Positions 1,828 to 51,996 of a stretch of DNA of 64,000 nt are shown piece by piece. Position 1 is the first letter of the stretch. Every line of letters starts with the position of its first letter. The stretch comes from an uncultured archaeon (lineage in GTDB: Archaea > Aenigmatarchaeota > Aenigmatarchaeia > QMZP01 > JAFGSV01). The notes below the pieces were generated by a model that saw only the letters and a list, made by a program, of their open reading frames with translations, made no database searches and was not told the DNA's origin. The stretch is from positions 75,287 through 139,286 of the forward strand of contig CAZLFZ010000001.1 in NCBI GenBank assembly GCA_964559215.1, given 5' to 3'. Made by a program: the position numbers and the translations under genes.

Positions 1828-1831
1828 CGTA

Positions 1832-3935: not shown

Positions 3936-4011
3936 GTGGGGCATGGCAGTTATTAATAAAAATGCGTGTAAAATAAAGAGTGTGAAAATTTCAGCAACTT
4001 GGTGATGCTCA

Positions 4012-28294: not shown

Positions 28295-28339
28295 CGTTGT
28301 TTTTGCTCTGATTCCTAGCTCTATTTTGAATCACCTAAG

Positions 28340-29188: not shown

Positions 29189-29196
29189 GTTAATTC

Positions 29197-31047
29197 CTAT
29201 CCAGCAGGCTCTTCAATAAATGACATGACATTTTCCGGATTTGTGTAATAACCATTCACAATTCTGCTAACCTCGTTGTAGTCGAACATCTTGAGGTCCC
29301 GCATCCATTGCAATATCCTCTTCCTCCTCAGAATCTCCACTTGCACACTTTCCTGAGTCATCCCGGACATCCTCGCAACGTTTTCCAAGACCTTTGAATC
29401 CATCTTTGTAACAAACCTGTCCTTTATGGGCACCCACTCGAAAATTTTTACGGCAAAAGGCCTGTCATTCTTAATCCCCACCACTTCACGTATTTCAACA
29501 GCCCTCCTGACATCCCTTCCCCTAACCTTCACCCTTTGCAGGAATATTATTATATCGATATTTTCTATGAGCGCGGGAGGCAACGAAATTGGCGGTGTTA
29601 TCAGTCTGTCCACGAGCTGGGGCAATGAGGCAGCGTGTATTGTTGCGAGTGATGGGTGTCCTGTAGCGATCTGCTGGAACAGCACGAAGGCCTCCCGGCC
29701 CCTGACCTCCCCCACCACCAGATAGTCAGGCCTCTGCCTCAGACTCGATTTTAGCAAATCGAACAAGGTCACTTCCCCAACTTTTCCTTTGACGGAAAGG
29801 GGAGACCTGGCAACTTCAGGGACCCAGTGGGTATGGGGCAGCCTGAGCTCGGGGGTGTCTTCAATGGACAATATCTTCAGGTCGGGCTTTATAAAAAGAG
29901 ACAGGGCATTCAGTAACGATGTCTTGCCGGTCGCTGTGCCGCCAGATATGAGGATAGACTTGCCACTCTCTATGGCCATCCACAAATACGCCAGTTGCAT
30001 GCTGTTCAGCGTTCCGTAGTGCAACATGTGCGTCGGAGTCAGTGGGTAGAAGGTGAATTTCCGGATGGTGAAATTCGAGCCCCTCCTAGCTATATCCGTG
30101 CCCATGGTGCACTGCACCCTGCTTCCGTCCGGCAGGGCGGCATCAAGCAGAGGCTCGGCGATTGATATGGACTTTCCGCACTTCTGGGCCAGCTTTAAAA
30201 CGTACTCATCTAACTCGCTTTTGCTCTCGAACCAGAGATTGGTCCTCATTGACCCGAATTTCGGATTTCTGTGATAGACATAGATAGGTATTTTCTCCCC
30301 GTCGCAGCTAATGTCCTCTATCTCGGTGTCTTTCATCATGGGGGTTATCATACTAAGCCCGATTATCTCCTTTTCTATGTTATACTGCAGGATAGGGATT
30401 TTCGCGGGGTCTACATTCGGCATTTCCACGAGAGAGGCCTGAACCTCTTTTCTCAGCATTTGCTTGGCCTTTATTTCTCCTAGCTTGGAAAAATTGACAT
30501 CAAGCCTTTCTTCGACATTCCTTTTTATCCTTTCTATTACCTCTTTGTCTTGGGGTGACATTCTGGGCTCTACGACATTGTAAACCACTGCACCAATTTT
30601 TTCGTCCCATAATATATGGGCATATGCAAAAACAAACTCCCCTCTCTTTGGTTGTGCCGGTATAAGAGGGTACTTCATATCCACATCTCGTAATTCTCGC
30701 ACCTCTATAGGCAGGCCAAATCGCATGCCCTTGATATGAGCCATTCCTGTCGGCAAAGGGACGCCTGCGTACACAATTTCTTTGGTCTCCCCTTCCTTAC
30801 CGCCAGCCTCCTCGGCACCCTTCCCCTTCTCTCCCCCTTTCAACTGTATATTGAGTGCCTGGGAAAGGGGAAAGGGCATCCCCATGAATTGATCCACGGC
30901 CATGCTCTGCACCCTCTCCTGATTTTTCTGAACTTCCTTTTCCTTTAAAGCGATATAACCCGTTTTGAACTTTTTCGCAATGCGCCTGGCACTGAGAGAA
31001 GAAAGTTTTATGTTCTTTTTTTTCACTTTTGGCAATTTTAGGCGCAT
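29197..31047 (-). CDS. Type IV pilus assembly ATPase (TadA/VirB11/FlaI-like)
   Basis: IEDISCDG, LDAALPDGSRVQ, Walker A GGTATGKT, SIEDTPE, RQRPDYLVVGEVRG and TGHPSLATIHA; likely start MRLKLP at 31047. Confidence 0.95.
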   Translation of the reverse strand: MRLKLPKVKKKNIKLSSLSARRIAKKFKTGYIALKEKEVQKNQERVQSMAVDQFMGMPFPLSQALNIQLKGGEKGKGAEEAGGKEGETKEIVYAGVPLPTGMAHIKGMRFGLPIEVRELRDVDMKYPLIPAQPKRGEFVFAYAHILWDEKIGAVVYNVVEPRMSPQDKEVIERIKRNVEERLDVNFSKLGEIKAKQMLRKEVQASLVEMPNVDPAKIPILQYNIEKEIIGLSMITPMMKDTEIEDISCDGEKIPIYVYHRNPKFGSMRTNLWFESKSELDEYVLKLAQKCGKSISIAEPLLDAALPDGSRVQCTMGTDIARRGSNFTIRKFTFYPLTPTHMLHYGTLNSMQLAYLWMAIESGKSILISGGTATGKTSLLNALSLFIKPDLKILSIEDTPELRLPHTHWVPEVARSPLSVKGKVGEVTLFDLLKSSLRQRPDYLVVGEVRGREAFVLFQQIATGHPSLATIHAASLPQLVDRLITPPISLPPALIENIDIIIFLQRVKVRGRDVRRAVEIREVVGIKNDRPFAVKIFEWVPIKDRFVTKMDSKVLENVARMSGMTQESVQVEILRRKRILQWMRDLKMFDYNEVSRIVNGYYTNPENVMSFIEEPAG

Positions 31048-31106
31048 AAAAACCTCGTTAAACGTTGGATATGGGATTAAAACCCTCTTATTCAGGCATG
31101 CAAGTA

Positions 31107-31523
31107 TCACTCTAATATAATATTATATCCTCTCTTATAAATTATAATTTCACCTTTACTGCTTGTCGAATTTCCTGAAAATGTGTACCTCTTACCCAGT
31201 TGATATAAATCCGAAGTGGCGGTAATCCCTGTCTCCCTGATAGTTACATTGAGCCTTGAACCTGTAAAGAGCATATCATATCCCTCACCGCTTATTTTTT
31301 TCGGTATTTTCAATTCAGCAGAAACGTTCAAATGCTCGAATTTGCTGAGCTGCAGGACCTGAGCAGAAATAAGGTCTCTCACGGCCTTTACCTGGTCATT
31401 TGCCGATACATCAGTAAAATAGGACTGGTAGAGCTGAAAAAGCCCGAAGCAAACTATAAATATTGCCACAGAAATCATGAATATCAGCACCTGCTCAAAA
31501 ATAAGTGTCTGGGCTTTTCTCAT
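31107..31523 (-). CDS. Pilin-like protein (class III-like signal peptide)
   Basis: MRKA/QTLIFEQ followed by a hydrophobic helix; lies in the pilus operon. Confidence 0.65.
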   Translation of the reverse strand: MRKAQTLIFEQVLIFMISVAIFIVCFGLFQLYQSYFTDVSANDQVKAVRDLISAQVLQLSKFEHLNVSAELKIPKKISGEGYDMLFTGSRLNVTIRETGITATSDLYQLGKRYTFSGNSTSSKGEIIIYKRGYNIILE

Positions 31524-36952: not shown

Positions 36953-38230
36953 ATGCGGGTTATAGCCGATTTGCACATCCACAGCCCTTATTCTAGGGCC
37001 ACGAGTAGAAGCATAACAATCCAGAATCTGGAGAAATACGCCAGAATCAAAGGTTTGAATCTGCTCGGCAGCGGCGACTTTACCCATCCGATGTGGTTGC
37101 ACGAGCTCAGGGAAAATCTAACACCTGACGGTTCTGGGATTTTGAAATCCAAGAACGGTTTCAATTTCATTCTTTCCACCGAAGTTTCGAATGTTTACGA
37201 ACAGGAAAAGAAAACCAGAAAGATACACAATGTGATACTCGCTCCGGATTTCGCTACAGTCAGCCAGATAAATGAATTTCTCTCCAAGCACAGCGACCTG
37301 AATTCCGACGGAAGGCCAGTCTTTTACGGGATGCCCTGTCCAGATTTGGTGGAGAATCTGATTTCCATATCAAGAGACATAGTAATAATCCCGGCCCATG
37401 CTTGGACACCCTGGTATGGGATTTTTGGTTCGAAATCCGGTTTCGACTCCGTTGGGGAATGTTTCAAGGACCAGACAAGGCACATTTTCGCCTTGGAAAC
37501 AGGGTTGTCCAGCGACCCGGCGATGAACTGGAGATTATCGGGACTGGACAAGTACGGCCTGGTCTCGAACTCGGACGCTCATTCGTTCTGGCCTTGGAGA
37601 ATCGGGAGAGAAGCCAATATCTTTGAACTGGAAAAAGCGAGTTATGATGATATAGTAAAAGCAATCAAGGAGAGGGATGCTCGAAAATTTAAGTACACTA
37701 TAGAAGTCAATCCCGCCTACGGCAAATACCACTTCGATGGTCACAGGGACTGCGATGTGCATCTAGAACCAATGGAATCGATCAAAATGAACAATATTTG
37801 CCCTGTGTGCAGCCGGCCCCTGACCATAGGAGTGATGCACAGGGTAGAAGAGCTCGCGGACAGGCCAGAAGGCTACAAACCCAAAGGAGCTGTGCCATTC
37901 AAGACGTTGATCCCTCTGACCGAAATTATCGCGACAGCGACCGGGATAGGGCAGCTTTATTCAAAGAAAATATGGGATGATTACAACGGATTGATAAAGG
38001 CATTTGGTTCTGAGTTGGACGTGTTGCTGCATGCGGAACAGGAGGAGCTGAAAAAGGTGGTTCACCCCAAGATAGCGGAACTGGTCTTGAGGGTCAGGCA
38101 CGGAAATGTGAGAATCAAGCCCGGTTTCGATGGGGTTTACGGTCAAATGGTTTTCGGAAATTCCGAAGAATCTGAAGAAAAAAAGAGCAAAAAATCAACT
38201 TCGCCACAGACCAGGCTGGACCAGTTCTAG
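36953..38230 (+). CDS. PHP-domain protein, endonuclease Q family
   Basis: DLHIHSPYSRATS, PAHAWTPW, ETGLSSDP, SNSDAHS, GKYHFDGHRDC and CPVC Zn ribbon. Confidence 0.88.
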   Translation: MRVIADLHIHSPYSRATSRSITIQNLEKYARIKGLNLLGSGDFTHPMWLHELRENLTPDGSGILKSKNGFNFILSTEVSNVYEQEKKTRKIHNVILAPDFATVSQINEFLSKHSDLNSDGRPVFYGMPCPDLVENLISISRDIVIIPAHAWTPWYGIFGSKSGFDSVGECFKDQTRHIFALETGLSSDPAMNWRLSGLDKYGLVSNSDAHSFWPWRIGREANIFELEKASYDDIVKAIKERDARKFKYTIEVNPAYGKYHFDGHRDCDVHLEPMESIKMNNICPVCSRPLTIGVMHRVEELADRPEGYKPKGAVPFKTLIPLTEIIATATGIGQLYSKKIWDDYNGLIKAFGSELDVLLHAEQEELKKVVHPKIAELVLRVRHGNVRIKPGFDGVYGQMVFGNSEESEEKKSKKSTSPQTRLDQF

Positions 38231-38282: not shown

Positions 38283-39179
38283 TTATCTGCCGTGAACTTC
38301 CACATTGGTCGAGGCGTCTACACAGTATCTGTATCTAGCTGTAATCTCAATTTCATTCTGCACGAGATTCGGGGTCCTGGAGTGCATACTCATATCGCAC
38401 GTCACTTCGCCCCTGTTGCTCCAGATAAGGAGTTCCGCAGGACATTCCACCACACTGGCCGTTGTGGATTTGATTTCCAGTCCAACCTTGTTCATCTTTT
38501 CACTATCGATGCAACTTTTCTGCCCACCGGGAAGGCACAACATACCCCCGCCACCGTTATCAACCGATATTTTCACAGGGAAGGTGACCTGCGTCTCTGT
38601 CACGATTATGGGAGAAGGGGTGGAGGCGGATATGGACACGGGGCTGTCGCCGGATATCGTACTCTGAGACGGCAAACCGGAGCCAGAATCCTGCAACCTT
38701 TTCAGTTCATACCTTGAAATGCTGGGGGTTCTCAGAACGGTTCTTCCCACGTAGTCATAACAGACCGTGATTTTGGGGGTGTACACCATGTGCAGGCCAG
38801 CTTCAATCTCAGGAGATGTCGCTGTCCACGAGCACATTTTTTCTTCCCCCTCCGTCCCGTATTGCAGATTTGGCGCCAACAGTTCGATATTGCCGCTTTC
38901 ACAATCCCGGTCGCTGACTTTCACATTACTCCAGCCATCCAGGTCAGTTAACTGGAAATAAACGTTTCTGGCCTGGAATGAACCCACATTTTTCACATTC
39001 GAATAGAGCGTAACATCTTCGTTAGGATAGACCCGCGAGAAGTCTGGCTTCCAGCCGCTTATTACAATGCCCTGACCGGATAGAGGCGGGTTTAATCCGG
39101 GAATCACGCATCCAGATGTCGTGACAGTTGCCAAAAACAGTAGAAGCAACATGCCGGACCTGATACTGCCGCCTGACAT
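38283..39179 (-). CDS. Secreted or lipoprotein-like SGC-motif protein, paralog 1
   Basis: N-terminal hydrophobic stretch ending TSGC; beta-rich body with YDY...IS..E..R...SP motif. Confidence 0.75.
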   Translation of the reverse strand: MSGGSIRSGMLLLLFLATVTTSGCVIPGLNPPLSGQGIVISGWKPDFSRVYPNEDVTLYSNVKNVGSFQARNVYFQLTDLDGWSNVKVSDRDCESGNIELLAPNLQYGTEGEEKMCSWTATSPEIEAGLHMVYTPKITVCYDYVGRTVLRTPSISRYELKRLQDSGSGLPSQSTISGDSPVSISASTPSPIIVTETQVTFPVKISVDNGGGGMLCLPGGQKSCIDSEKMNKVGLEIKSTTASVVECPAELLIWSNRGEVTCDMSMHSRTPNLVQNEIEITARYRYCVDASTNVEVHGR

Positions 39180-39330
39180 AATATATAATATGACTCAAAG
39201 TTTTTATATCGTTTCTGTAGCAGGATTTCATGAATTTGCCCCAGCCCTATCCAATTTACCAAAGGCTTTTAAGAACATCTATTTTCATGTCGTCATTCAA
39301 AGCCCAGAGGCGAGGATAGAAACAAAGGAC

Positions 39331-40302
39331 TCAGAAAAAGCCCCATTCTTCGGTGCCCGTAACGTCGATTTGAGTCGACTGGTCGGTGTAATAAATATAC
39401 TTCAAGGTGACCGTGAGTTCCCTCTCCTGCCTGTAATCAGGTGGGGTTATGACCTTCAGCTCACATGTTACCTTAGTGTCCCGGCCGTTCCACATAACAA
39501 TGGTCTTGGGCGAAACGGGCCTTGTCAGGCCGACAGGCAAGTGCATGTCATAAAATGTCCCGCCCCACTCGGTTTGGGACCTTGGTGGGCAATCCCCCTT
39601 GAACATGGTTCCCGCTGGCGGTTCTATCTCTATTCCGATCGGGTAGTTCTCGCCGGCAATCAGGCCGCCACCAGTGTTTTCTATATCAATCTGGACGGGG
39701 AAGTATGACTGCTGCCAGTTGTCCTTCGTCCTTACGAACTCGCCGGTTCTTACTTCTACCGATAAGGGGCCTGCGCTCGTGATGGTTGGATCAGCATACA
39801 GCGACTCCCCATTCTGCACGATTCTTCTCAGCTCGTCTGAGGTCACGAATGTTATTGGCTTTGTCACCTTCGTTTCATATGAATAGAACACCCTTACCAT
39901 GGGATCATAAGTCCTCCTCTCGCCCCTTTTGAGGTCAGGTGTCGTCAACCTCCAGTCGGCCGTCGCTATCTGGCCCTCTGTCCCCCTCTCGCGGTCGGCT
40001 GGCCGCAACTCATCCAGCAACTGATCCGTCTGGAAAACCCCCCAGTCCTGGGGATAGATTCCTATCAGCTTGGCTGCAGCCCTGCCGATGACATCGCCCT
40101 GGTTTTGGACCTCCAGATGCAGAATCAGATCATCGGCCGATTCAACGGATTTCAGGCTTGGTTCAAACTTCGTGATAACTATGCCATTGCCTGTTACCCC
40201 AGTGTCGCCACCGAGGTTGATGCATCCTGATACTAAGACAACGGCAACTGGAAGAATCAGCAGCCATTCCAGGTTTTTACCCATTTTTACCTTATTCATC
40301 AT
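39331..40302 (-). CDS. Secreted or lipoprotein-like SGC-motif protein, paralog 2
   Basis: VLVSGCIN; YSY...FVTSDELRR...AGP motif. Confidence 0.75.
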   Translation of the reverse strand: MMNKVKMGKNLEWLLILPVAVVLVSGCINLGGDTGVTGNGIVITKFEPSLKSVESADDLILHLEVQNQGDVIGRAAAKLIGIYPQDWGVFQTDQLLDELRPADRERGTEGQIATADWRLTTPDLKRGERRTYDPMVRVFYSYETKVTKPITFVTSDELRRIVQNGESLYADPTITSAGPLSVEVRTGEFVRTKDNWQQSYFPVQIDIENTGGGLIAGENYPIGIEIEPPAGTMFKGDCPPRSQTEWGGTFYDMHLPVGLTRPVSPKTIVMWNGRDTKVTCELKVITPPDYRQERELTVTLKYIYYTDQSTQIDVTGTEEWGFF

Positions 40303-40387
40303 ATCTCCTTTATTACTTGGTTCAATAACTTTATAAATTTTATTACTGTCTGCCGACTAATATAAGCCTTTGTTCTGGGCACTTTGA

Positions 40388-41398
40388 TTATCCAGTGAAC
40401 TTGGGATTTACCACAACCTGAACGGTTTTGATGAATGTGTACTCATAGTCATCGATGGACACTTCGAGGTGCCTTGTTGCCGTTTTTATCACTTCCTGCT
40501 CAAGGTCCGAAAGGTCAATCCTGCATGTCAGGGGAGCGGATTGCTTGCCTATTAGCCTCACATCCTCGTTCACCTTCCCCCCCAGTTTGCATTCAGTGTC
40601 CGAAATCGGTTTCAAACCGTCGCTTCCTATCCCTTTGACTGTAATATACTCACCTTTCTCCAGGCCGACAACATCATTGCCTTTCGAGTCTTTGAATTTG
40701 GAGGCCAGGTTTCCCGAGCCAGCGTTTTTCACCACCAGTTGCAACATAGTCCTGGCGCCATTATAGACGGGTACAGGCTGTTTGTCCTCGACTGTGAGGT
40801 ATGGCTTTATCGGCCCCTGTCCGACCACTATGTAGGATTCGGTGGACCTGTACTCCCTCTGCTCCAGCGTCCTTTCAAGTTCGGCCTTGCTTATGAAAGA
40901 GATGGTAGTGAGGCTGCTCGTCGTGTAGGGATATGTCACTGATACCTTCATCCCGTCCGGGGGGCATATTGTCCTGAGCTTGACGGGGTTTGACTCATCC
41001 TGCTCCAAGGTCCATACAACCCGCACGATTTCATCTGGAAGCATTCCGTTTATTTCGCACTCAGTGTCGGCCTTTTCACTCCCCTCGCACATTACTTTCG
41101 GGATATTGAAAAGCCCCTGGCAATAGTCATACAGCTCAACAGTGATTGTTTCTTCGATGCTCTTGTCCCCATTGTTTTGGATATAGGCTATTAGCTTTGT
41201 GGTTTGGCCAGCGTCTATTTCAGCCGGGATAGCCTCGAGGCTATTTATCACCACGATGTCATGCTCGTACTGGACCACGGTCGGGCCGCCAAAGCCGGGT
41301 ATGTCCGGAAGTCCTGGGATTTCGATGTTGAGAATGGGAACGGTGCAGCCGGAGCCCATAGCAACCAAAATCAGCACAAAAGGCAGCAACTTCTTCAT
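40388..41398 (-). CDS. Secreted or lipoprotein-like SGC-motif protein, paralog 3
   Basis: GSGCTVP; YPY...FISKAELER...QGP motif. Confidence 0.75.
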   Translation of the reverse strand: MKKLLPFVLILVAMGSGCTVPILNIEIPGLPDIPGFGGPTVVQYEHDIVVINSLEAIPAEIDAGQTTKLIAYIQNNGDKSIEETITVELYDYCQGLFNIPKVMCEGSEKADTECEINGMLPDEIVRVVWTLEQDESNPVKLRTICPPDGMKVSVTYPYTTSSLTTISFISKAELERTLEQREYRSTESYIVVGQGPIKPYLTVEDKQPVPVYNGARTMLQLVVKNAGSGNLASKFKDSKGNDVVGLEKGEYITVKGIGSDGLKPISDTECKLGGKVNEDVRLIGKQSAPLTCRIDLSDLEQEVIKTATRHLEVSIDDYEYTFIKTVQVVVNPKFTG

Positions 41399-41449
41399 AG
41401 TTAATAATAGCCTCGGAACAAATATAAATTTGCCTGAAGTTTATATGAT

Positions 41450-42430
41450 ATGGACGTGCTTTACCAGTATTTCTTGCTGCCTATCATGAGGAACGGGTGG
41501 TTCAACCCCGTGAACAGCCTGGTTTACGGACTGTTTTTGGTAGCGGGCAGCTGGCTTGTCTTCAAGCTTTTGCGTCGCCTGAAAATCCCGATAGACGGCA
41601 GGCTCTATCTATCCTTGCTGCCGTTCATAGCTTTCGCGGGCGTTACAAGGACCTTGAGGGACTACATTTACTTCTCCGTGGCTGGTGCTGGTGAAGCCGG
41701 CTTTTACCAGTCTTTTCTTGGACACATGCAAATTATACAAGAAAAAGCCTACGATTACACCTTTGGCGCCACGGGAAACAGTGTGCTTGCGTCCATAAAC
41801 TCACATGTCATAGCATGGTTCCCCACCCCTGGCTCCTATCTCATAACATTTCTGCTTGCGCTGTCGTCCCTTTTCGTTTCTTTGATAATAGAGAAATATG
41901 GGAAAATACCTTACTGGAAAACGCTGTTTGCGTTCGGTTTTGCATTACTTTTGCTCAACGGCGCCCTGCTGCCGGTAAATTCTTACACGCCACTGCTTTA
42001 CATAGGTATCGTTTCAATTGGATGGACGGTGCTGTTTTTCTCAATCCAGCCAATCGCCAGCATAAACAGAATTAAAAAAATGAGCAAGCGATGCGCAAAG
42101 ATCCTGCAAGACATCTTTACGAAAATCAATTCAGCCATACTCTCAGCACATTTCTTCGATGCGACAGCAACCTTCTTCGCCATAGCCGTGTTCAGCACCA
42201 TGGCGGGCCAGGGATACGCTGAGCAGCACTTCCTGTCGAGGGCGCTGATACCTTTCCTAGGTCCCCAGGTCATGTTCCTGCTGAAGTTCGCGGTCGTTAT
42301 CCCTGTTCTATACTTCACAAACAAATATGTCGAAGAGAAAGAATTCAGGAACTTCCTGCTCCTCGTTATCCTGATTCTGGGACTGGCACCGGCCACCAGG
42401 AACCTCGCCAGGCTGTTAGTGGGGGTTTGA
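41450..42430 (+). CDS. DUF63-family archaeal membrane protein
   Basis: FNPVNSLVYG, SAHFFDATAT, EQHFL and LILGLAPATRNL motifs. Confidence 0.8.
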   Translation: MDVLYQYFLLPIMRNGWFNPVNSLVYGLFLVAGSWLVFKLLRRLKIPIDGRLYLSLLPFIAFAGVTRTLRDYIYFSVAGAGEAGFYQSFLGHMQIIQEKAYDYTFGATGNSVLASINSHVIAWFPTPGSYLITFLLALSSLFVSLIIEKYGKIPYWKTLFAFGFALLLLNGALLPVNSYTPLLYIGIVSIGWTVLFFSIQPIASINRIKKMSKRCAKILQDIFTKINSAILSAHFFDATATFFAIAVFSTMAGQGYAEQHFLSRALIPFLGPQVMFLLKFAVVIPVLYFTNKYVEEKEFRNFLLLVILILGLAPATRNLARLLVGV

Positions 42431-42549
42431 AGGCAGCCAGTTATATCGAATATTATTACAGTATATTGTAAGGATTTGAAAGCAGTAAAACGACATTTTT
42501 TTAAAACTTCCTGCCAATTCTATACTCAATCAAGCTATGGAGTGGTTCC

Positions 42550-43596
42550 ATGGGCATTGCAAATTACAGAAAGGGATTCAACGGCTGGGTAGAAGATCAC
42601 GTACCTGGCGGGCAATACCTCACGATGGATGTCGGGGATGTGGCAAAGGCGGTCGGCAGATATGCCGTTAAAGGAATGAAGGCTGGAGTATACTCACTAC
42701 CATTCGTTCTCGCAGGAAACGCCCTTGCAGATGTGCAGCCAACTACAGCCAGCGACGAGGTTAAGCTGCTTGACAAATTCCATGTGAGGGAGGTTTATTT
42801 CGATGGCAGTTTCGCGGCATGCGATCTGCTGTCAGGAAATAAGTCGGTGTCCGGAGAAATGGTATTGGTGGCCGAGCCGGTCGGTAAGGATTATCTCAAA
42901 CCCGCGCCAGAAGCAAAGGGGGAGCCAGCCAAGCCAATCTTCTTCAAAGGAACACACGGCCCTAAAACAGAACCGGTTGCACCTCCAACCAGCACTGTGA
43001 CCCCTCCAAAGACCTACAGGTTGCACGTTTCGATTCCGAGGACACAGGCATGCCTCAATGATATCAATAAGTTCGTGGGTTATCTCTCCAGGAATTGCGG
43101 TGTCATCCAGCTCGTTAACAACACCCCGGAGAAAGATGACAAAGGAACGCCGGACCCAAACGATGATTTCTACCGTATTAACCATAACGGTTTCGAGATA
43201 GACATGGTGCATGTCGTCGGCGGAATTCCGGAAGGCTTCGATGACAAATGGTATGGCAATGTGAATAATGGGGAGAACCTTGCCGTTGTGGGAGCAGTGT
43301 ATGACACCGGTTTGGATTGGCGCTGCGGAAACCCAAAGGGCAACGGCTATCTGACGCTGTTCTTGGACAAGCCGGACGCTGTAAAAGAAACCCATAGGCT
43401 TGATGTCTTCCTCCCAAAGGAGAGCGGATACAGGACAGGTCAGTCACTGGCAGAGAAAATCAACGGAAGCGGCGTTATTGTCGAGAAGAAACCCGAGAAA
43501 TGGCCACAGCATAATCACCATGGAATAGAGCTGAATGACCTGAAGGTGCAAGTCAAACAGCAGTGGTATCCCAAATCCAGCAGGAAGTGTAGGTAA
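42550..43596 (+). CDS. Hypothetical protein, probably exported
   Basis: 348 aa ORF; LAGNALA/D signal-like segment after a charged leader; beta-rich body. Confidence 0.65.
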   Translation: MGIANYRKGFNGWVEDHVPGGQYLTMDVGDVAKAVGRYAVKGMKAGVYSLPFVLAGNALADVQPTTASDEVKLLDKFHVREVYFDGSFAACDLLSGNKSVSGEMVLVAEPVGKDYLKPAPEAKGEPAKPIFFKGTHGPKTEPVAPPTSTVTPPKTYRLHVSIPRTQACLNDINKFVGYLSRNCGVIQLVNNTPEKDDKGTPDPNDDFYRINHNGFEIDMVHVVGGIPEGFDDKWYGNVNNGENLAVVGAVYDTGLDWRCGNPKGNGYLTLFLDKPDAVKETHRLDVFLPKESGYRTGQSLAEKINGSGVIVEKKPEKWPQHNHHGIELNDLKVQVKQQWYPKSSRKCR

Positions 43597-43696
43597 AAGA
43601 CCTTTCTTCACCCCTTCTTTGTACACACGGTTAGTAAGAACATTCATATATTGGACATCTCATAATGGAAAGTCATTCAACTTGTTGGGTGCTAGT

Positions 43697-46600
43697 TTAC
43701 TTAGGCATACATCCGTGACTTATGACTTTACACACATCTGAATAATCCCTGGTGCATACCTCTTCCGACAGGTCATTACAAATGGCTGTTTTGAAAGTCC
43801 CCCCAGTTTCTTCTCTTGTCTCGCTCTTTACCTTGTATTCGTAATCTGTATCAAGGTCCAGCGACTTAAGGATAACGCTATGGTCTGTGCTTATACCGCC
43901 GGTGCCTGTCACGGACGTGTAGGAAGTATCAGCAGATTTCTTGTAGCTCACCATGGAATCCGCTGGAATCGATGACATCCATGTTACCGTGACCTCGTTT
44001 GTTGTTCTTTCTAGTGCGTCATTTATTGCTGTTATCCTCAGGTAACAGGTGTCTGATTGCCACTGGCATTTAGAGCTGTACGTGACCTTGCATGACGAAT
44101 CGCTGAGCTTGGTACACCCTGCTGTTGTGAAGGAGCCGCCAGACCTTTCTTTCCCATCGCTCTTCACCTTGAAATCGTATTTTGTCCTCAGATCCAGGCT
44201 TGGGAGCAAGAGCGAATGTTTCTTTTTTGGTTCAGTGGACGCCGGTTCCATCGCACTCCTCCAAGAGGAATCTTCAGACCTCTTGTAGAGAACACGATTA
44301 TCGCTAGTTGGATCCTTGGTTTGCCATTTGATGGTCACACCACTGGTTGTTTCATCGATATTGTATTCTATGTTCCCTATACCGGAATCATCAAACGGGA
44401 CCACCGATGGCTCTTGGCAGACATCGCTGAAAGCGAACAGCGTGTCCTTGGTTTCCCATTTTTTGAACCTAAACGTTGCATTTCCCCTCACGTAATACGT
44501 CTTGGTTGGCCCCCCCGGGTCTGGGGTTGAGGCGAATGTACAGAATATGGCCTGGCCTCTGTTATATTCCAGGCCTTCCCATACATGCGGAGGTCCTCTT
44601 GTTGTGGGCTTTATGGTGCATTTCGGATCCTCGCCGGTCGCTCCCACTTTTTCAAGCTCCTTCGGATAGTCGAGTGTAATCTTGACATACTCCCAGATTA
44701 TTGCGGATTTCTTACCCTCCGCCGATGTGAGGTTGAAGCCTAAGTAGAAGGGTCTCTCTCCCGCAATCAGCGGCTGGTCGAAGGACCCTATGGAGAGCTT
44801 TACGGGGGAGGTTGATATGTGCGAGGGAACTTTCGACAGGGTGAATGTACCCTTCGCTGACCTGTCTCTCCATTCCTGGTCGCTTATGACCGTCAGGGGC
44901 ATCCATGAGCTGACCTCGTAGTCATATTCCACGCTCACGTTGACCCGGATGTACATGTTTCTGTCCGACAATCTTGAAATAACACCACTTTTCATTATCC
45001 TGTCACAGTCGGTATCGAGAGTGAAAAACAAGGGAATTATAAAACCCTTTTCGATCTCATCGGTATTGTATGTTCCTCCATTCCCTATTGTGATCACATC
45101 CTTCAGATTATCCGGCACCTCGACCTTCACCTCGACCATCTTCCCGTCTTCGGGGCCGACATCATGTATGTTCAATGTCATCATAGCCGTGGTCCCTGGA
45201 TATATGGCAGGAACCTGCAGATTCTCTATCTCAACCCCGAATGCACCGGTAGGACCATGGGGGTTCGGCTCATACGTCCCTACCATTATCTGTTGTGCAA
45301 ATCCCATGGGATTGGTGAGCAGCAGGAAGGTCTGGCCGAAGGTGTTCCCCAGCGTACCAAACAGTTCTCCCAGAGGTTCGGTTATGGTCGATACGGCATT
45401 ATGCACCGTTGGCCACCATGCACCGAAGAACCCCTGCCCGACAATCTGCTCACCGGCACCCGCAGAGTAGAAAACAAAAACAACTATCAGCATCAATACA
45501 CCAGTGTAAGGCCTGACCTGTGCGGGAGACGTAATCCCACCTATCAGGCAGATTATCCAGAAGGGCAAGAACACGTTCCCTGCAAGCGTCCCGATGTCGA
45601 GATTTAGTCCAACCCCACCCATAACGCTAATCAGGCCGAATACCATCAGAACCACGAATATGATCTTGTCAAACATCTCGTAGTTCGCTGAGACACCGCT
45701 TCCTGCATGGCCTATGGCCCTTGCGAGGTTCTCCTTCTCTGCTGCTATCGGAAGGATAGCGAAGAACGCCAGCGACAGCCATCCCAGCTCTATGCTCTTG
45801 AAAATGACAAGGAAAACAAATGCCAGCAGAATGGCAACCGGGATTCTGATCAGCCCTTCCATGAATTTGTACGCCTCTTCAGTGCTGTACTCCCCAGGCA
45901 GGCTGAAGTAGGCCGCGAAGCAGAAACCAAGCAGCAGAATGCCCCTGAACGGCAGCTCGGTCGCGAAAAAGCCCCAGCCAAAGAAGAAAAGCATAAAAAT
46001 CTTAAGCAGCGACTTCGTCGCGGCAATGCCCGTGGAATACCTGTTGTCGTAGCCTTTGCCGCTTGCCAGCAGGCTGCCCATATGCCAGGGTTGCCCCTCC
46101 CAATTTTTCACGAGTTTTATCGGCTTGGGGTTAGGCAGTATGTTCATTCCAGCCCAGCAAGCGAAACCTACCAAGAACGGCCAGCCGAACATAGCACCGA
46201 CAACCAGCCCAATCAGGGCAAGGATGAGGCTGAAAGCCGTTCTTTCTGTGTGCTCCCCAATGCCACGGAAAAATTTGCTCATAGCCTTCTCTTTAGACTT
46301 ATACTGATCATACGAATCCTTTTTTGCCCTTTGCTCCTCTGTCAAGAACTTTTCACCCCCCTTTTCTTCCCTACCCAATGACTCCCTGAGGGCTTTCTGT
46401 GCGTTCTCCGAGAAATGTTTGGACTCGTCAGGGTCAAGCCCGTATTGACTTCTCGCGGTGGCCTTGTCAATACCCAGCCTCTTTAAAAAGACGTCAGTAA
46501 TGCCGTGTTTATTTACGTTGGCAGTTATCCTATCCATTTCCCTTTTTATTGACCATTCCTTACCGGATTTTGGGTTATCAATGTCGTAACCCTGATTACG

Positions 46601-47302
46601 CATATCTGTCTTCAGCCTTTCGATTCCCTCAAGCTTTCTCCGCTTTCTCAACTCGAGCCATTGTTGGTAGTCCCTATCTGACAAATCGATGAACCACGGC
46701 TGCGTATGCCCAGGTCCCCTCGGACAATTCCTGTTAACGCAGTACAACCTATATACAACTCCAATTGGCGTACTTTTCTCATCCTCGTATATCTCCTCGT
46801 GGCAATAAGGACACAACTCAGGGATGACCTCTCCTGGATGAACAAGCACAAGTTCGCCTTTCGCGTTTCTCACATAATCGTTATCGCACCTGTCGCAATG
46901 ATATTCACCAAGTGCACCGGCTATTGGATGCAGGGGATACTTCTCATGGCTGAAGCTAAGGCACGAAGGACACCAGAGTGCTCTTGACTTAGGTGGTGGT
47001 GCCTCAGGCGGAGGTTCTGGAGGCGGCTTCGGTGGGGGTCTTTCCCTTCGTTTCTTTGGCAAGTCCTCATCCAAAGCAACACTTTCTGCTCCAACCTCTT
47101 GCATTTCTGCCCTGGCAGCATCAGCCATCCTCCTTAGCTCTTCGGAACTAACATAAGCTTTGGGGTCAGGGTTATAACATGGACAGGATCTTCCAGTTCC
47201 GCCATAATCTTTATTGTCACATCTAAAAAGTCCTCTTCTCACATAAAGCGGCTCTCCGCAAAAAGGACACAAGGGTTTCGAATCCGCTCCTTCTTCTGAC
47301 AT
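43697..47302 (-). CDS. Large multidomain membrane protein: N-terminal Zn ribbons, multi-TM core, SGC-paralog-like domain and two FN3-like/Cys repeats
   Basis: CPFC...C, CPSC...CDRC and CPYC...CVNRNC; about 9-10 hydrophobic helices; YDY...VISDQEWRDR...SP motif; duplicated VT.tW...HS.lL.sLDL.T.Y.yKVKS repeat. Confidence 0.75.
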   Translation of the reverse strand: MSEEGADSKPLCPFCGEPLYVRRGLFRCDNKDYGGTGRSCPCYNPDPKAYVSSEELRRMADAARAEMQEVGAESVALDEDLPKKRRERPPPKPPPEPPPEAPPPKSRALWCPSCLSFSHEKYPLHPIAGALGEYHCDRCDNDYVRNAKGELVLVHPGEVIPELCPYCHEEIYEDEKSTPIGVVYRLYCVNRNCPRGPGHTQPWFIDLSDRDYQQWLELRKRRKLEGIERLKTDMRNQGYDIDNPKSGKEWSIKREMDRITANVNKHGITDVFLKRLGIDKATARSQYGLDPDESKHFSENAQKALRESLGREEKGGEKFLTEEQRAKKDSYDQYKSKEKAMSKFFRGIGEHTERTAFSLILALIGLVVGAMFGWPFLVGFACWAGMNILPNPKPIKLVKNWEGQPWHMGSLLASGKGYDNRYSTGIAATKSLLKIFMLFFFGWGFFATELPFRGILLLGFCFAAYFSLPGEYSTEEAYKFMEGLIRIPVAILLAFVFLVIFKSIELGWLSLAFFAILPIAAEKENLARAIGHAGSGVSANYEMFDKIIFVVLMVFGLISVMGGVGLNLDIGTLAGNVFLPFWIICLIGGITSPAQVRPYTGVLMLIVVFVFYSAGAGEQIVGQGFFGAWWPTVHNAVSTITEPLGELFGTLGNTFGQTFLLLTNPMGFAQQIMVGTYEPNPHGPTGAFGVEIENLQVPAIYPGTTAMMTLNIHDVGPEDGKMVEVKVEVPDNLKDVITIGNGGTYNTDEIEKGFIIPLFFTLDTDCDRIMKSGVISRLSDRNMYIRVNVSVEYDYEVSSWMPLTVISDQEWRDRSAKGTFTLSKVPSHISTSPVKLSIGSFDQPLIAGERPFYLGFNLTSAEGKKSAIIWEYVKITLDYPKELEKVGATGEDPKCTIKPTTRGPPHVWEGLEYNRGQAIFCTFASTPDPGGPTKTYYVRGNATFRFKKWETKDTLFAFSDVCQEPSVVPFDDSGIGNIEYNIDETTSGVTIKWQTKDPTSDNRVLYKRSEDSSWRSAMEPASTEPKKKHSLLLPSLDLRTKYDFKVKSDGKERSGGSFTTAGCTKLSDSSCKVTYSSKCQWQSDTCYLRITAINDALERTTNEVTVTWMSSIPADSMVSYKKSADTSYTSVTGTGGISTDHSVILKSLDLDTDYEYKVKSETREETGGTFKTAICNDLSEEVCTRDYSDVCKVISHGCMPK

Positions 47303-47346: not shown

Positions 47347-49407
47347 TCACGTGTCATCCTCTATTTTTCTGGCCCTTCTCTTTGCCTCTTCCCTCTCCTT
47401 TTCCATAATCTCTCTGGCCCTTTCCCGCGCCTGTCTGGTTTGCTCATCGGCTATTTCCCTCGCCTGGCGAACAGACCCCTCAAATTCCTTGAAGCTCCCT
47501 ATCGGCTTTTTCTTCCCCTCCAGATAGGGAAGGTCGCCCAGGCCAAAGGCCCCCTGCTTCCTTAATTCCTCCAAATCACCACCAGCTTCTATGAATTCTT
47601 TAACCTCAGAATACCCACCGAAATACACCCAGTCCTTGACAAAGCCCCCCGGCTTTTTGCTATCTCTCAGGCCCCTCTTCGCCCTGAATGTAGCCATCCA
47701 ACATTCCTCATCCGATATCCCATATGACTTGAGCTTTACGAAAAGGTCGTGAAACCCCATTTTCAAGGCATAATGTGTGGCGATGACCCTCAGGGCATAG
47801 GCAAATTCAGGCTCTTTAGTCTCTCCCCCTGCCTGTGCATGCAGTGCCCCGCCTTCCTCCGTGGGCCAGTAACCGGAAGTTCCGTAGCGCAGAGTGCCGT
47901 AACCCCTTTCCGCCCCCCTGGCGCTCCTCTCTACATGCCACCCGACTTCGTGCCTGACAAGCCCCTCCGTGTATTTCTCTAAGGGGACATTCAAGACCTT
48001 TTTTCTTGGAACCTCTACCATCTTCTCGGAGAAATGAACCCTGGTTATGGGCGTCTCTGTTATCTCGACCTTCCACCCCTTTATGCCCCTTTCATGCATG
48101 TATTCTTCCATTCTTTTTTTGACAAATTCGGGGTTATACGGATAGGTCTTTCCACTCCCGCCCATTTCGGATTCCGCGTGTTTTTTACAAACCCCTTCCG
48201 CTTTTTTCACAGTCCCAGAATTTGGAAGCCCATAAACCCGAATGGAATATTTCGTTATCGCGGGGGTTCCTATCAGCCTTAAAAATTTCAACTTGCTCAT
48301 GAGGTCTATCCTCTTCTTCTCGATAATCCTCCCCCACGGGCTCTCCTTATAATCAATGCGCAGGTCCCTCAAGGACCTCATTATTTCTCCGGTCTCCCTC
48401 ATCACATCCTTCTCGACGAATTTAAGGCCCTCGTACTCAAACCTCGGATTATAGACCTCGCCCTTCATTAATGCCTCAAAGAATTTCCCCTTTTCCTCGT
48501 TCAGATTTGTCGGCGTTAAAAATATGTAAAGATTGTTTATGTCATATTTCTCGATTATTTCGGTAAGCTTTTCGTCCACCCCCCTCAGAACCGCATCGCT
48601 TTCAGGCAACCCCGGCCCGACACCGCCCATTTTACCTGCAATATCCCTGGCCCTTCTCTCTGCCACTTCCCCCTCTTTTTTCACAATCTCTCTGGCCCTT
48701 TCCCTTGCCTGTCTGGTTTCTTCTTCAGCTATTTTCCTCGCCCGTTTCTCAGCCTCCGATTTCCCGGCGTCAGCCAACTCCTGCTTCCTCGATAGCGCTT
48801 TTAACCCTCTTTTTTGCTGTATGCTGCCCATCGGCCCGACCTCCCAGTGCCTGTGATACACCATTCTACCATGCCCTGGGAATACGAGGGCTTCCCCCCT
48901 CCCATGCTTTTTCGCTTCTTCTGCGCTTTCCATCAGTTCGTGTGTCTTCGCCAGCTTGCCCTTTTTGTACAGATTCTCTGCTTGGCTTTTGCTTATGCCG
49001 TCAGGATTCTGTTGTGAGAACCCCCGCGGTCCCCAGTACCGCACCATAGACCAGGCACCCGGAATGGCACTTGACTCAACAACAAGCTTTCCTGGGTCTT
49101 TGATAACAATCTCTTCAAGCACACCCTTCTTCGCCAGGTTGCTTGCCCTGACCCATATGTTAACAGCTTTTCTGAGCGGTATATCATCCATTACCGCTTC
49201 CTTAACGCTGGGATTCGCCTCTACTACGTCCTTTAAGCGCTCACTGGTTTCAGAACTCAAGGCATTTGATAATTTTTTCAGCTTGCCAAATTCAAAATAA
49301 TCTTCGGTGCGCACCGGGCATAGGGGATTGCTGCACTTGTAAAGTTCCCCTCCCGACTCGAATTTTCTGGCTTCCAGTTCATCATTGCAGTACGGACATT
49401 TTGGCAT
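47347..49407 (-). CDS. Zn-ribbon plus DUF1704/MATCAP-like gluzincin metallopeptidase
   Basis: N-terminal CPYC...CSNPLC; YNPRFEY; HEVGWH (HExxxH); TEEGGA; RAKRG; F.KD.VY..GY. Confidence 0.75.
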   Translation of the reverse strand: MPKCPYCNDELEARKFESGGELYKCSNPLCPVRTEDYFEFGKLKKLSNALSSETSERLKDVVEANPSVKEAVMDDIPLRKAVNIWVRASNLAKKGVLEEIVIKDPGKLVVESSAIPGAWSMVRYWGPRGFSQQNPDGISKSQAENLYKKGKLAKTHELMESAEEAKKHGRGEALVFPGHGRMVYHRHWEVGPMGSIQQKRGLKALSRKQELADAGKSEAEKRARKIAEEETRQARERAREIVKKEGEVAERRARDIAGKMGGVGPGLPESDAVLRGVDEKLTEIIEKYDINNLYIFLTPTNLNEEKGKFFEALMKGEVYNPRFEYEGLKFVEKDVMRETGEIMRSLRDLRIDYKESPWGRIIEKKRIDLMSKLKFLRLIGTPAITKYSIRVYGLPNSGTVKKAEGVCKKHAESEMGGSGKTYPYNPEFVKKRMEEYMHERGIKGWKVEITETPITRVHFSEKMVEVPRKKVLNVPLEKYTEGLVRHEVGWHVERSARGAERGYGTLRYGTSGYWPTEEGGALHAQAGGETKEPEFAYALRVIATHYALKMGFHDLFVKLKSYGISDEECWMATFRAKRGLRDSKKPGGFVKDWVYFGGYSEVKEFIEAGGDLEELRKQGAFGLGDLPYLEGKKKPIGSFKEFEGSVRQAREIADEQTRQARERAREIMEKEREEAKRRARKIEDDT
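47369..48743. repeat. Dispersed ~96-nt duplication (47369-47464 and 48647-48743, offset 1278 nt) encoding a charged helix
   Basis: AREIADEQTRQARERAREIMEKEREEAKRRAR versus ARKIAEEETRQARERAREIVKKEGEVAERRAR; shared DNA words such as ATCTCTCTGGCCCTTTCCC. Confidence 0.8.
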
Positions 49408-49464
49408 ATACTTATATTGGTTTTTCGTTCTATTAAATAAAATTAATAATTTAACTACCAGTTA

Positions 49465-49839
49465 ATGAAAAAATTTATAAAACCATATCCGCATTATCTT
49501 ACTATGCATCAAAAACTCAAAAGATACGCCACCAGTTTGGGAAACGCCTTCAGAAACGCGTATAGCGGCGGAATAGACCTGGGCAAGCTTTATGAATTTG
49601 GCGAGAATATAAGCACCCAGTTAGCCGCTGATGTAGTTAAACACAGGATTAGCGAAGATGACGAAGGATATGACCTGCTTACCTGGGCGACAGGCATCAC
49701 CCACCAGCTACATGACGCAGGTGCTAGGCAGCACTTCATGGAAAATCCACAAGAGCTTGACGAATACTCGAAAATGCTGCTGGGTGAGAAAGAGCCAGTT
49801 TTTTCGTTCGGATCAGACACGGTTAATACACAAAAATGA
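49465..49839 (+). CDS. Hypothetical protein
   Basis: 124 aa ORF after an AT-rich divergent intergenic region. Confidence 0.55.
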   Translation: MKKFIKPYPHYLTMHQKLKRYATSLGNAFRNAYSGGIDLGKLYEFGENISTQLAADVVKHRISEDDEGYDLLTWATGITHQLHDAGARQHFMENPQELDEYSKMLLGEKEPVFSFGSDTVNTQK

Positions 49840-49880
49840 TGTAAAACCAAATTAAATTAGTTAACGACCTATAAGTTCAT

Positions 49881-50870
49881 ATGCAACTACCTTTTCGAAA
49901 ACCCTCCCAACCATCATGCAGGGAATATTATGGATGCAAATGCATAGATGACCCGAAAACGATTAGGAAGCACGTCTTCATCGAGTTGACGTCCAAATGC
50001 AACTTCAGCTGCGATTACTGTGTTTACAGACATTCAAAAAGAAAAAAGGATTTTATAAGCCTACCCTTTCTCGAAAAAATCCTACTAGACCTGAAAAAGC
50101 TGAAACCAATAGATTATGTCATGTTCTCTGCATTCGGGGAACCTATGTTACATCCACAATTTAGTGAAGCCTGCAGGTTAGTGAAAAAATACGGTTACCA
50201 TTTAATCGTTACCACCAACGGTAGCCTGTTAAATGAAGAAACGAAGAATTTGCCAATAGACGAGTTATACATCCGCCTGGAAACTGTAACGAAAAGGTCC
50301 TTCAGGTTGAGAAACGCCGGAAATTTGAAATTAGGAGATTATCTAAATAAGGTTTGCGATTTTGCAAAAGAGGTTCCTTTCAAAACCACATTATATTTTT
50401 TGAAAGAAAACAGAAAAGCGTTCCCGAATTACAAGGATTTCATCAGCACGAAAGATAAGAAGAAATCAATAAAATTATTAGAAAATATCGGAAAGAAGAT
50501 AAACCCGGATTTTAAGGTTTTTTTAGATAATTTTGATTTCTTCCCCAATTCAATACATATTTCGCCTAATGTGAAGTTTTACTTCAAGAATCTGGTTGCA
50601 AGGCCCCATTGCTGGATCCCCGAGCATTTAAACTTGATAGAATCCGAATCGGTTCCGGATTGCGGTTACTACAAGCACCACATAAATATCCTGAGCAATG
50701 GAGAAGTGACCGTTTGTTGCACGGATTATGATGGAAGTATGAGCCTTGGCAACGCAAGGCTTGAAAGCCTGAAAAAAATTTATGGCAGGAATAAAAGAGA
50801 CATAAATCTGGCTGTATTTCCAATATGCAGAAAATGTAGAGGGACGCTCATTCCAAAACAAAAAAGCTGA
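49881..50870 (+). CDS. Radical SAM protein with SPASM/twitch-like C-terminus
   Basis: CNFSCDYC, FGEPMLHP, TTNGSLL, CGYY...ILSNGEVTVCCTDY and CRKC. Confidence 0.88.
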   Translation: MQLPFRKPSQPSCREYYGCKCIDDPKTIRKHVFIELTSKCNFSCDYCVYRHSKRKKDFISLPFLEKILLDLKKLKPIDYVMFSAFGEPMLHPQFSEACRLVKKYGYHLIVTTNGSLLNEETKNLPIDELYIRLETVTKRSFRLRNAGNLKLGDYLNKVCDFAKEVPFKTTLYFLKENRKAFPNYKDFISTKDKKKSIKLLENIGKKINPDFKVFLDNFDFFPNSIHISPNVKFYFKNLVARPHCWIPEHLNLIESESVPDCGYYKHHINILSNGEVTVCCTDYDGSMSLGNARLESLKKIYGRNKRDINLAVFPICRKCRGTLIPKQKS

Positions 50871-50877
50871 ATTTGAC

Positions 50878-51996
50878 TCAGGCAACTTCCACGCTGACGT
50901 CACCGATGTCAAACGTCCCAGTTCCGCTGATTTCGAGCCAGTTGGTGTCGATATCCAGCAGATCAGCGCTGAAGGGAATCCTGTTCCAGCCAGGCTTTGC
51001 ATCAACGGATCCCGCACTCTGTTCGTTGAGCTTTATTTGCAGCCTACCTGGTCTTTCCACATCTTCCACGTACATCCGGACCACGCTGCCTTTCGCTTTC
51101 AACGAGTTCAGCTGAGACTCGGTCAGCTCGAAGCGCTCGCGCATTACCCTCTGGTTCTTGCTAACGTACGTCTTCAGTATCACGTCCTGCAACTCGAACG
51201 AGCCATCCACAGCCAGGAAGGTCAGCCTGTTGTCACCGGGGATAATCGAAGCCGTTTGCAGGCCGGTGTCCGTGAACTCGACGCTGTCCTGCCTCTCAGG
51301 CTCTGCACTGTAGATTCCTTCGCCGTTCACCTTTACTACGAGGGTACCTAACCTGCTTGCCGTGAACCAGCTCAGATCGAACCTGTCAAGGGACTCCAGC
51401 TCGTCCTGCGAAACAGCGAAATCCAGGAACTTCGCAGGGCCGTATTCAGCGTTCATCTTGAAGTCCCTTATGTTGTAAATGGTCGCCGCCCAAAACATGA
51501 CGCCAGGCCCCTGGGCAGCTATTTCCATGCCGTTTTCTTCTTTTATCTGGGAAGGCAGAACGGTAACGGTATGCTTGCCCGTGTCTGCCATCTCGTTGTA
51601 CAACTCTGCGCCGTTCCATGTTATGACGAGGTTGCCGTACTGGTTCGTGTCATCGACGGTGAAGGTGATCTCCCCGCTCTTGAGCCATTCAAGAATGTGC
51701 GAGGGAACAAGTACGGTGAAGCGCTCGCTGCTCAATCCGAACAGGCCAGCTGTTATTTCCATCCTGGGAACGGATTTCAGATTTTCTAGCTGCGGCAGGC
51801 CCACGCCGAATGAGCCGAAATCCTGCACCCTTGACACGTAGTTCTCTGAGTACCCTATCGTGCCCGCGCTGAATTCGTGAATCACCCTGATGTCTGCGGG
51901 AACGCCCTCCGGATAGTAAGGGAAATAAGCGGAAACTGCTAGGAGAATGATAAGAACAACGGCAATTATTATCAGCGACCCTATGAACGTGTCCAT
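50878..51996 (-). CDS. Membrane-anchored beta-rich surface protein of unknown function
   Basis: Single N-terminal TM helix; 372 aa. Confidence 0.7.
   Translation of the reverse strand: MDTFIGSLIIIAVVLIILLAVSAYFPYYPEGVPADIRVIHEFSAGTIGYSENYVSRVQDFGSFGVGLPQLENLKSVPRMEITAGLFGLSSERFTVLVPSHILEWLKSGEITFTVDDTNQYGNLVITWNGAELYNEMADTGKHTVTVLPSQIKEENGMEIAAQGPGVMFWAATIYNIRDFKMNAEYGPAKFLDFAVSQDELESLDRFDLSWFTASRLGTLVVKVNGEGIYSAEPERQDSVEFTDTGLQTASIIPGDNRLTFLAVDGSFELQDVILKTYVSKNQRVMRERFELTESQLNSLKAKGSVVRMYVEDVERPGRLQIKLNEQSAGSVDAKPGWNRIPFSADLLDIDTNWLEISGTGTFDIGDVSVEVA

Follow-up and report, generated by a model that had tools for sequence, protein, structure and literature searches.

A family of putative lipoproteins widespread in Aenigmatarchaeota and its predicted paralog in a polytopic membrane protein

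We analysed a 64,000-nucleotide (nt) stretch of DNA (hereafter the window) from contig CAZLFZ010000001.1 (positions 75,287 to 139,286; assembly GCA_964559215.1) of a salt-marsh archaeon of the Aenigmatarchaeota (DPANN), whose genome of 1.36 Mb is 90% complete. DPANN archaea live attached to other cells, and their envelope and contact-site proteins are almost unknown. We found that three tandem genes in the window encode paralogous proteins with predicted lipoprotein signals, here called A, B and C, and that a neighbouring membrane protein, D, carries their two-domain unit a fourth time, as profile comparisons indicate. The genes lie beside a gene for a candidate lipidation enzyme, and the cluster is probably a core, unexplained part of the cell envelope in this group. 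No description of the family or of the cluster was found in the literature; the family is undescribed and of a familiar general kind.

An earlier note on this DNA had described three tandem minus-strand genes with SGC N-termini. The open reading frames (ORFs) were found as it gave them, and each N-terminus has a charged n-region and a hydrophobic h-region followed by xSGC (TTSGC in A, LVSGC in B and MGSGC in C). Family orthologs carry VSGC, ISGC, ASGC or TSGC at this position, those of C having TSGC or ISGC, and in C a conserved stretch, TVPILNIEIPGLPDIPGFGG, follows the lipobox Cys ahead of the two-domain unit. The signals of A, B and C contain no twin-arginine, suggesting that export would proceed by the Sec route. 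The class III signal peptide of archaeal type IV pilins was not found in them; they have lipobox signals instead, and a pilin identity was rejected on the signal type. When a profile of the family was searched exhaustively against a global library (E≤1e-3), it gathered 3,810 clusters at 50% identity, and the xSGC lipobox was present in 147 of the best 149 cluster representatives, with lengths of 280–340 amino acids (aa). The reading of the SGC N-termini as lipoprotein signals was therefore upheld, but not their use as a mark of the family, because about 17 ORFs genome-wide share the lipobox ([LVI..][AST..]SGC). By this count, SGC is a general predicted lipobox of this genome and no family hallmark. 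A, B and C are probably lipid-anchored surface proteins.

Ortholog alignments of A, B and C were drawn from synteny-defined relatives and compared by profile–profile alignment with hhalign. A matched B with a probability of 100% (E 1e-66), B matched C with 98% (1.7e-13) and A matched C with 98.4% (5.9e-15). Pairwise BLASTP gave E values of 7e-28 over the full length for A and B, 1e-5 for B and C, and 0.006 for A and C. As judged by these comparisons, A, B and C are true paralogs.

The shared motif first proposed for the family, V.Y.Y-x7-9-[IFV][IV][ST]..E..R-x10-14-[SG]P, proved right in its columns, which are invariant or nearly so family-wide, and wrong in its literal form, which matches nothing since the spacer before [SG]P is 17–18 residues rather than 10–14 and A has S at the first [IFV]. 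A relaxed pattern matched A, B, C and D only, in 1.16 million six-frame residues of the genome. In D the motif runs VEYDYE...TSP at residues 791–833 (window 44804–44932), close to the position given before (44862–44945). The C-terminal Y.Y strand was likewise borne out, Y302 and Y304 being invariant or nearly so in B numbering, as are N67, Y140, Y142, E157, P179, N209, G211 and C280.

An AlphaFold2 model of B built with 39 homologs had a predicted local distance difference test score (pLDDT) of 84.6 and a predicted template-modelling score (pTM) of 0.76, and consisted of two beta-sandwiches. A long hairpin with V.Y.Y leads to a helix at 155–163 (SDELRRIVQ) and on to the second sandwich, which ends in the Y.Y strand. 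The single exported domain of the first description gave way to a unit of two domains, and each unit comprises two CARDB-like immunoglobulin (Ig) beta-sandwiches with a short linking helix. A Cys pair of the second domain is conserved in the family unit, the copy in D included, and could form a disulfide. A comparison of the N-terminal with the C-terminal domain did not show an internal duplication; only A reached 74%.

We then compared the unit with known families. Sequence searches of Pfam, NCBIfam and the PDB returned no family that claims the two-domain unit and no enzyme family, a known unrelated enzyme having been raised earlier as the alternative identity. Sub-threshold Pfam matches linked C to CARDB (17.5 bits against a cut-off of 22.7) and A to NPCBM_assoc (13.5 against 24.4), DUF11 was also sub-threshold, and CARDB reached E<0.05 in just 4 of 24 family members (best E 0.0016). 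By the Pfam gathering threshold, membership in CARDB (PF07705), DUF11 (PF01345) and NPCBM_assoc (PF10633, NEW3) failed. The unit resembles these families in its Ig-like sandwich and an 'x-N-x-G' strand motif, with weak N-terminal-domain matches in some members of A, B, C and D, whereas its linking helix, Cys pair and Y.Y strands set it apart, and it has no Pfam model of its own. Foldseek searches of the PDB with B returned generic tandem Ig/FN3 scaffolds only. Among these, the integrin alpha thigh/calf domains, Vibrio RbmA, alpha-2-macroglobulin MG domains, transglutaminase C-terminal barrels and complement C4b have two successive beta-sandwiches, as do B and the D ectodomain; at TM-scores of 0.16–0.25 and identities of 8–10% the likeness is one of fold class and carries no functional inference. 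An ABC-transporter substrate-binding lipoprotein was rejected as the identity of the family, the B model being all-beta and not alpha/beta, and the clusters read holding no ABC transporter genes.

Membrane protein D begins with cytoplasmic Zn ribbons and a charged region (residues 1–351), followed by about nine transmembrane (TM) helices (352–622) that end in an invariant juxtamembrane motif, GQGFFGAWWPTVHN ... LTNP(M/V)GF ... GTYEPNP (residues ~617–680, window 45263–45454). The motif falls in the stretch that separates the last TM helix from the first sandwich, and it may have a functional role. It is echoed, as NPFGI and GTYNPENLW, in the short D-like proteins that Woesearchaeota-type genomes encode. 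Distal to the two-domain unit, residues 975–1201 (window 43700–44380) hold two FN3/Pur_ac_phosph_N repeats with Cys-rich linkers, and this C-terminus passes the Pfam gathering threshold for PF16656 (51.4 bits against 30) in two stretches (residues ~980–1165). In D homologs other domains stand distal to the unit: Peptidase_M23 at 941–1015 of P0051, and Glucosaminidase and Amidase_3 at 1211–1528 of P0057. This variation suggests that the two-sandwich unit serves as a membrane-proximal stalk that carries exchangeable domains on its outer side.

When an alignment of the D ectodomain with 15 homologs was compared with the family by hhalign, it matched A at 94.3% (E 1e-7, 234 columns) and C at 95.2% (2.5e-8, 233 columns), colinear over both domains, and the reversed D alignment used as the control stayed below 3%. 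Direct BLASTP comparison of D with each of the three lipoproteins gave marginal values at best (E 0.035 to >1). The AlphaFold2 model of D residues 350–960 had a pLDDT of 71.6 overall and 75–89 in the ectodomain blocks. The models of B and D were compared by the order of their secondary-structure elements and by their Foldseek hit lists; the element order was the same and the lists overlapped, where different folds would have spoken against a common family. The membrane part of D had no Foldseek match in the PDB. Matches of D to TRAP subunits were set aside as generic beta-sandwich likeness and not built on. On these profiles and models the D ectodomain unit is the fourth family copy, and the four-member paralogous family first proposed held up. 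That the likeness is a chance motif among unrelated beta-sandwiches is very improbable: the marginal BLASTP values and a profile probability of 45% between B and D would allow it, but the A and C profiles align with D independently and colinearly, the Cys pair and Y.Y strands are common to D and the lipoproteins, the models of B and D agree in element order, and D-like proteins of distant lineages match the family hidden Markov models directly.

Adjoining C on the opposite strand is a gene whose product matches DUF63 (PF01889) with an E value of 4.4e-47 (162 bits against a cut-off of 25), and which is the sole copy in the genome. Its identity as an AliA/AliB-family gene was not recognised in the earlier note. 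DUF63 now bears the family name AliA_AliB, taken from enzymes of Haloferax volcanii. To our knowledge, the lipidation role of AliA was shown only in 2024–2025 and only in a haloarchaeon. The window's AliA is a candidate lipidation enzyme for A, B and C, and its adjacency is the strongest support for their predicted lipidation. In Haloferax volcanii, AliA and AliB are required for lipoprotein lipidation, and aliB paralogs often lie near predicted lipoproteins (PMC12462473). A, B and C resemble the lipoproteins matured by AliA/AliB in that organism (arCOG02177/02178, PF01889) in having an n-region, an h-region, a lipobox of the form [LVI..][AST..][GAS]C and an adjoining AliA-family gene. They differ in that their mature parts fall in no described lipoprotein family and that they occur as a set fixed at three to four paralogs, accompanied by a polytopic membrane paralog; furthermore, lipidation is experimental in H. 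volcanii, whereas in A, B and C it is predicted from sequence.

A profile survey of the family, one of the checks suggested with the first description, was carried out on 371 species genomes of the phylum with the B profile as the query. The family was present in 316 of these genomes, in 87 of the 98 high-quality genomes and in 155 of 170 genera, with one to five copies per genome that are usually tandem. D, searched in the same genomes with residues 350–960 as a single-sequence query, gave matches in 146. The named protein relatives are all labelled Candidatus Aenigmarchaeota or Aenigmatarchaeota, and every homolog of B bears the name Aenigmarchaeota and lacks a Pfam domain. The family also extends beyond the phylum, as genomes titled Woesearchaeota, Nanoarchaeota or Nanobdellati (taxon names outside Aenigmatarchaeota being those of NCBI record titles) have two to three tandem lipobox genes that match the family profile with E values of 1e-9 to 1e-19 per genome. 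In a maximum-likelihood tree of 86 members, C-type and B/A-type proteins fell into two clades, the split having 100/100 support, and C was the deepest-branching paralog type. Both types were found in distant families of the phylum, and the split is older than the families of the phylum. In the order to which the window belongs there are three orthogroups, which match gene positions 1, 2 and 3(+4) in the invariable succession C-B-A; family f6 has a further duplication of A. The agreement of orthogroup with position, together with the presence of both types in distant families, marks the paralogs as old and not interchangeable.

We next examined the gene neighbourhood. The order p372, D, AliA (on the opposite strand), C, B, A and a PHP-domain gene (TIGR00375) recurs in the family to which the window belongs and in several others distant from it, p372 being a predicted ectoprotein gene that is the conserved first member of the cluster. 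At least 20 loci, drawn from several families, share the co-directional order p372, D, (AliA), C, B, A. These loci, and the presence of the core in genomes titled Woesearchaeota or Nanoarchaeota, lend support to the functional link of the trio with D that had been proposed. A wider sample of 80 AliA-centred loci was gathered with an AliA alignment, and in its Aenigmatarchaeota-type loci D lies nearly always beside AliA, even where the trio is elsewhere. In genomes titled Woesearchaeota or Nanoarchaeota, a p372 homolog (E 1e-19 to 2e-25) is followed by a D-like membrane protein of 460–550 aa, two to three lipoproteins and PHP, and the D-like protein aligned with the D alignment by hhalign at 95.6% (E 1.3e-8, 320 columns). 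These Woesearchaeota-type modules are like the window in the order of p372 homolog, D-like protein, lipoproteins and PHP, and unlike it in lacking an adjacent AliA and in having a shorter D-like protein; their AliA loci have no adjacent lipoprotein array, which lies elsewhere in those genomes. No family member was found at the AliA loci of Methanosarcinales, Methanocella, Archaeoglobaceae, Hydrothermarchaeota and two genomes titled Halobacteria or 'NM3'. Three genomes titled 'Nanoarchaeota archaeon' (L072, L074 and L077) have the full Aenigmatarchaeota-type AliA-D arrangement with trio matches of E 1e-81 to 1e-88, and their titles are probably generic DPANN labels.

Homologs of p372 stand directly upstream of D in L035, L037, L039, L055–L057 and many AliA loci. 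In the window the interval between D and p372 (47347–50870) holds a Zn-ribbon MATCAP/DUF1704-like peptidase, a 124-aa ORF and a radical-SAM/SPASM gene, which, given the direct adjacency in relatives, are insertions in this genus. p372 matched no Pfam family. It was also tried as a fifth paralog of A, B and C and rejected (hhalign <1%).

N-glycosylation sequons (N-x-S/T) were counted in the mature proteins and compared with the expected numbers and with 200 shuffles. C-type proteins had 16 where 51 were expected, B-type 13 where 50 were expected and A-type 7 where 70 were expected, with none of the 200 shuffles as low, which is a depletion of about five-fold overall. The window's own A, B and C have zero sequons. 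The pilin-like neighbour, in contrast, is enriched (28 against 13 expected). The depletion stands although an AglB/STT3 oligosaccharyltransferase is encoded in the same window. It indicates that the lipoproteins are kept free of N-glycans, which fits tightly packed or shielded surfaces.

With moderate confidence, we propose that A, B and C together with D form a lipid-anchored, glycan-free hetero-oligomeric platform near the membrane, anchored by D. The fixed gene order, the ancient and non-interchangeable orthogroups, the sequon depletion and the synteny point to a hetero-oligomer. Once exported, the proteins would receive a lipid on the lipobox Cys from AliA, whose gene adjoins theirs and has no second copy in the genome. 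A, B and C would then pack with one another and with the homologous unit of D, perhaps also with p372, and the packed proteins would make up the platform near the outer face of the cytoplasmic membrane. D would fix it in the membrane, its Zn-ribbon region reaching the cytoplasm, and would hold the lineage-variable distal domains outward, two FN3 repeats here and peptidoglycan hydrolases in some relatives. A part in contact with the host is our inference, and a contact or secretion apparatus is speculative. The broader proposal, that p372, D, C, B and A are an undescribed envelope machine of several DPANN phyla, a contact platform toward host or prey with exchangeable FN3 adhesion or peptidoglycan-hydrolase domains, is rather doubtful.

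Several observations weigh against a D-anchored hetero-oligomer. D is unlinked from the trio in families f5 and f6, about 110 kb apart in one genome. A, B and C each have a separate AT-rich, TATA-like region upstream, so fixed A:B:C ratios are not required. The unit of D is not sequon-depleted (45 against 40 expected) and may not share the packed environment of A, B and C, and the similarity of B and D is weak, as noted above. Moreover, tandem paralogous lipoproteins can also act independently.

The last point can be developed into an explanation of its own, in which A, B and C are independent surface proteins (adhesins or binding modules) that arose by tandem duplication, their clustering reflects shared ancestry and envelope expression, and AliA lies near its abundant substrates. 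The separate upstream regions and the unlinked D would fit it, as would the copy number of one to five across the phylum with the further duplication of A in f6, the frequency of CARDB-like domains (here sub-threshold matches) in adhesion-type proteins, and the general tendency of aliB genes to lie near predicted lipoproteins (PMC12462473). However, the strict C-B-A order predates the diversification of the order, the pair of a C-type and a B/A-type protein is kept phylum-wide, and retention in 155 of 170 genera would be unusual conservation for variable adhesins. In addition, sequons have been purged from all three groups, pointing to constrained surfaces, and p372 and D remain with the lipoproteins in two phyla. 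We consider independent action rather unlikely.

An S-layer made of the trio, or its membrane anchor or stalk, in the form of a lipid-anchored lattice of Ig-like domains, is improbable. Many archaeal S-layer proteins are built of beta-sandwiches, and the family is all beta-sandwich, membrane-anchored by prediction and near-universal in the phylum, with strong TATA-like promoters ahead of each gene; no other obvious S-layer gene was identified. Archaeal S-layer proteins are, however, usually large, fast-evolving and often N-glycosylated, whereas A, B and C are about 30 kDa and conserved across the phylum and into a second one. Their five-fold sequon depletion would be atypical, though not excluding. 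In the relative L003 a 1,067-aa type I membrane protein near the trio (1770–4973, minus strand), which begins with a signal peptide and is anchored by a C-terminal TM segment, looks a likelier candidate for a classical S-layer protein.

We also weighed a link with the pilus locus of the window, which has T2SSE and T2SSF Pfam matches and lies 5–7 kb from A. The lipoproteins and D could on this account be accessory envelope parts of a type IV pilus machine, serving in its base, its collar or pilin handling. In families f5 and f6 a pilin-like gene, pil157 (157–181 aa, class III KGQ/..FEF), stands in divergent orientation to C at 10 of 13 loci, and the pilin-like protein that closes the PilB-PilC-PilC operon here is its ortholog (hmmsearch with the pil157 profile, 1.3e-42). 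In f6-type genomes (L067, L068, L076 and L103), the pilus operon has AliA immediately behind PilC2, D being convergent, whereas in the window (26856–31110) it is the pilin-like gene that follows PilC2. C also has a weak ArlG-like match (E 0.019). However, one inversion with ends at PilC2|pil157 and AliA|C interconverts both arrangements, suggesting that the association may be historical rather than functionally selected. The trio is separated from the pilus locus by the thermosome, a transcription regulator and the PHP gene, the p372-D-lipoproteins-PHP set occurs without pilus genes in distant families and in Woesearchaeota-type loci, and Foldseek gave no match to a pilus chaperone or alignment complex. 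The nearness to pilus genes pointed out before is real as adjacency to parts of the cluster within one order, and as an argument for shared function it is weak, given that single inversion. We regard a pilus accessory role as quite improbable, a shade more so than an S-layer.

With the trio, the biogenesis of archaeal lipoproteins could be tested on natural substrates from outside the haloarchaea. The cluster is a candidate core envelope or contact structure, given its unchanging set of paralogs, its purged sequons and a membrane paralog whose outer domains are exchangeable and include bacterial-wall hydrolases in relatives, and its fixed synteny in several hundred genomes makes paired-alignment co-evolution analysis and multimer modelling feasible. 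Were A, B and C to act independently, they would still represent a new large family (the 3,810 clusters above) deserving a family model and a name.

Table 1. Features of the lipoprotein cluster and related genes in the window
Feature	Position in window	Strand	Description
AglB/STT3 oligosaccharyltransferase	5084–7303	−	739 aa; PF02516, 101 bits
Pilin-like protein	26856–27374	−	172 aa; class III signal KG/Q..FE; last gene of the PilB-PilC-PilC operon
PHP-domain protein (TIGR00375/MJ0043-like)	36953–38230	+	Convergent with A; TIGR00375 E 5.9e-66
Lipoprotein A (putative)	38283–39179	−	298 aa; signal peptide, lipobox TSGC, two CARDB-like beta-sandwich domains; third of the trio, orthogroup 'position 3/4'
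Lipoprotein B (putative)	39331–40302	−	323 aa (database form 322 aa, from the second Met); lipobox VSGC; two Ig-like beta-sandwiches
Lipoprotein C (putative)	40388–41398	−	336 aa; lipobox GSGC; two-domain unit; first of the trio
AliA/AliB-family membrane protein (DUF63, PF01889)	41450–42430	+	Divergent from C, 51-nt spacer
X348	42550–43596	+	348 aa; between AliA and D; 3 sequons
Membrane protein D	43697–47302	−	1,201 aa; polytopic
Predicted fourth copy of the two-domain unit, D ectodomain (residues ~680–947)	44462–45265	−	From hhalign against the A and C profiles
p372	50878–51996	−	N-terminally membrane-anchored, beta-rich ectoprotein; conserved first gene of the cluster

Besides the genes in Table 1, the window encodes a thermosome, Cdc6, an H+-pyrophosphatase and the PilB/PilC pilus locus. 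The gene X348 matched no family and is absent from its position in sister genera (L055–L057), where AliA abuts D, and it looks like a lineage-specific insertion. Aenigmatarchaeota and Woesearchaeota-type genomes alike (L035–L057, L152, L154 and L156) have the PHP gene beside the final lipoprotein gene of the array, an adjacency that is very long-lived and probably synteny only. Finally, a 653-aa member of the B/A type with about 330 extra C-terminal residues was found in genome G226 (L038, 7242–9203, plus strand) and also as P0207; by these predicted proteins, some family lipoproteins also bear distal additions.

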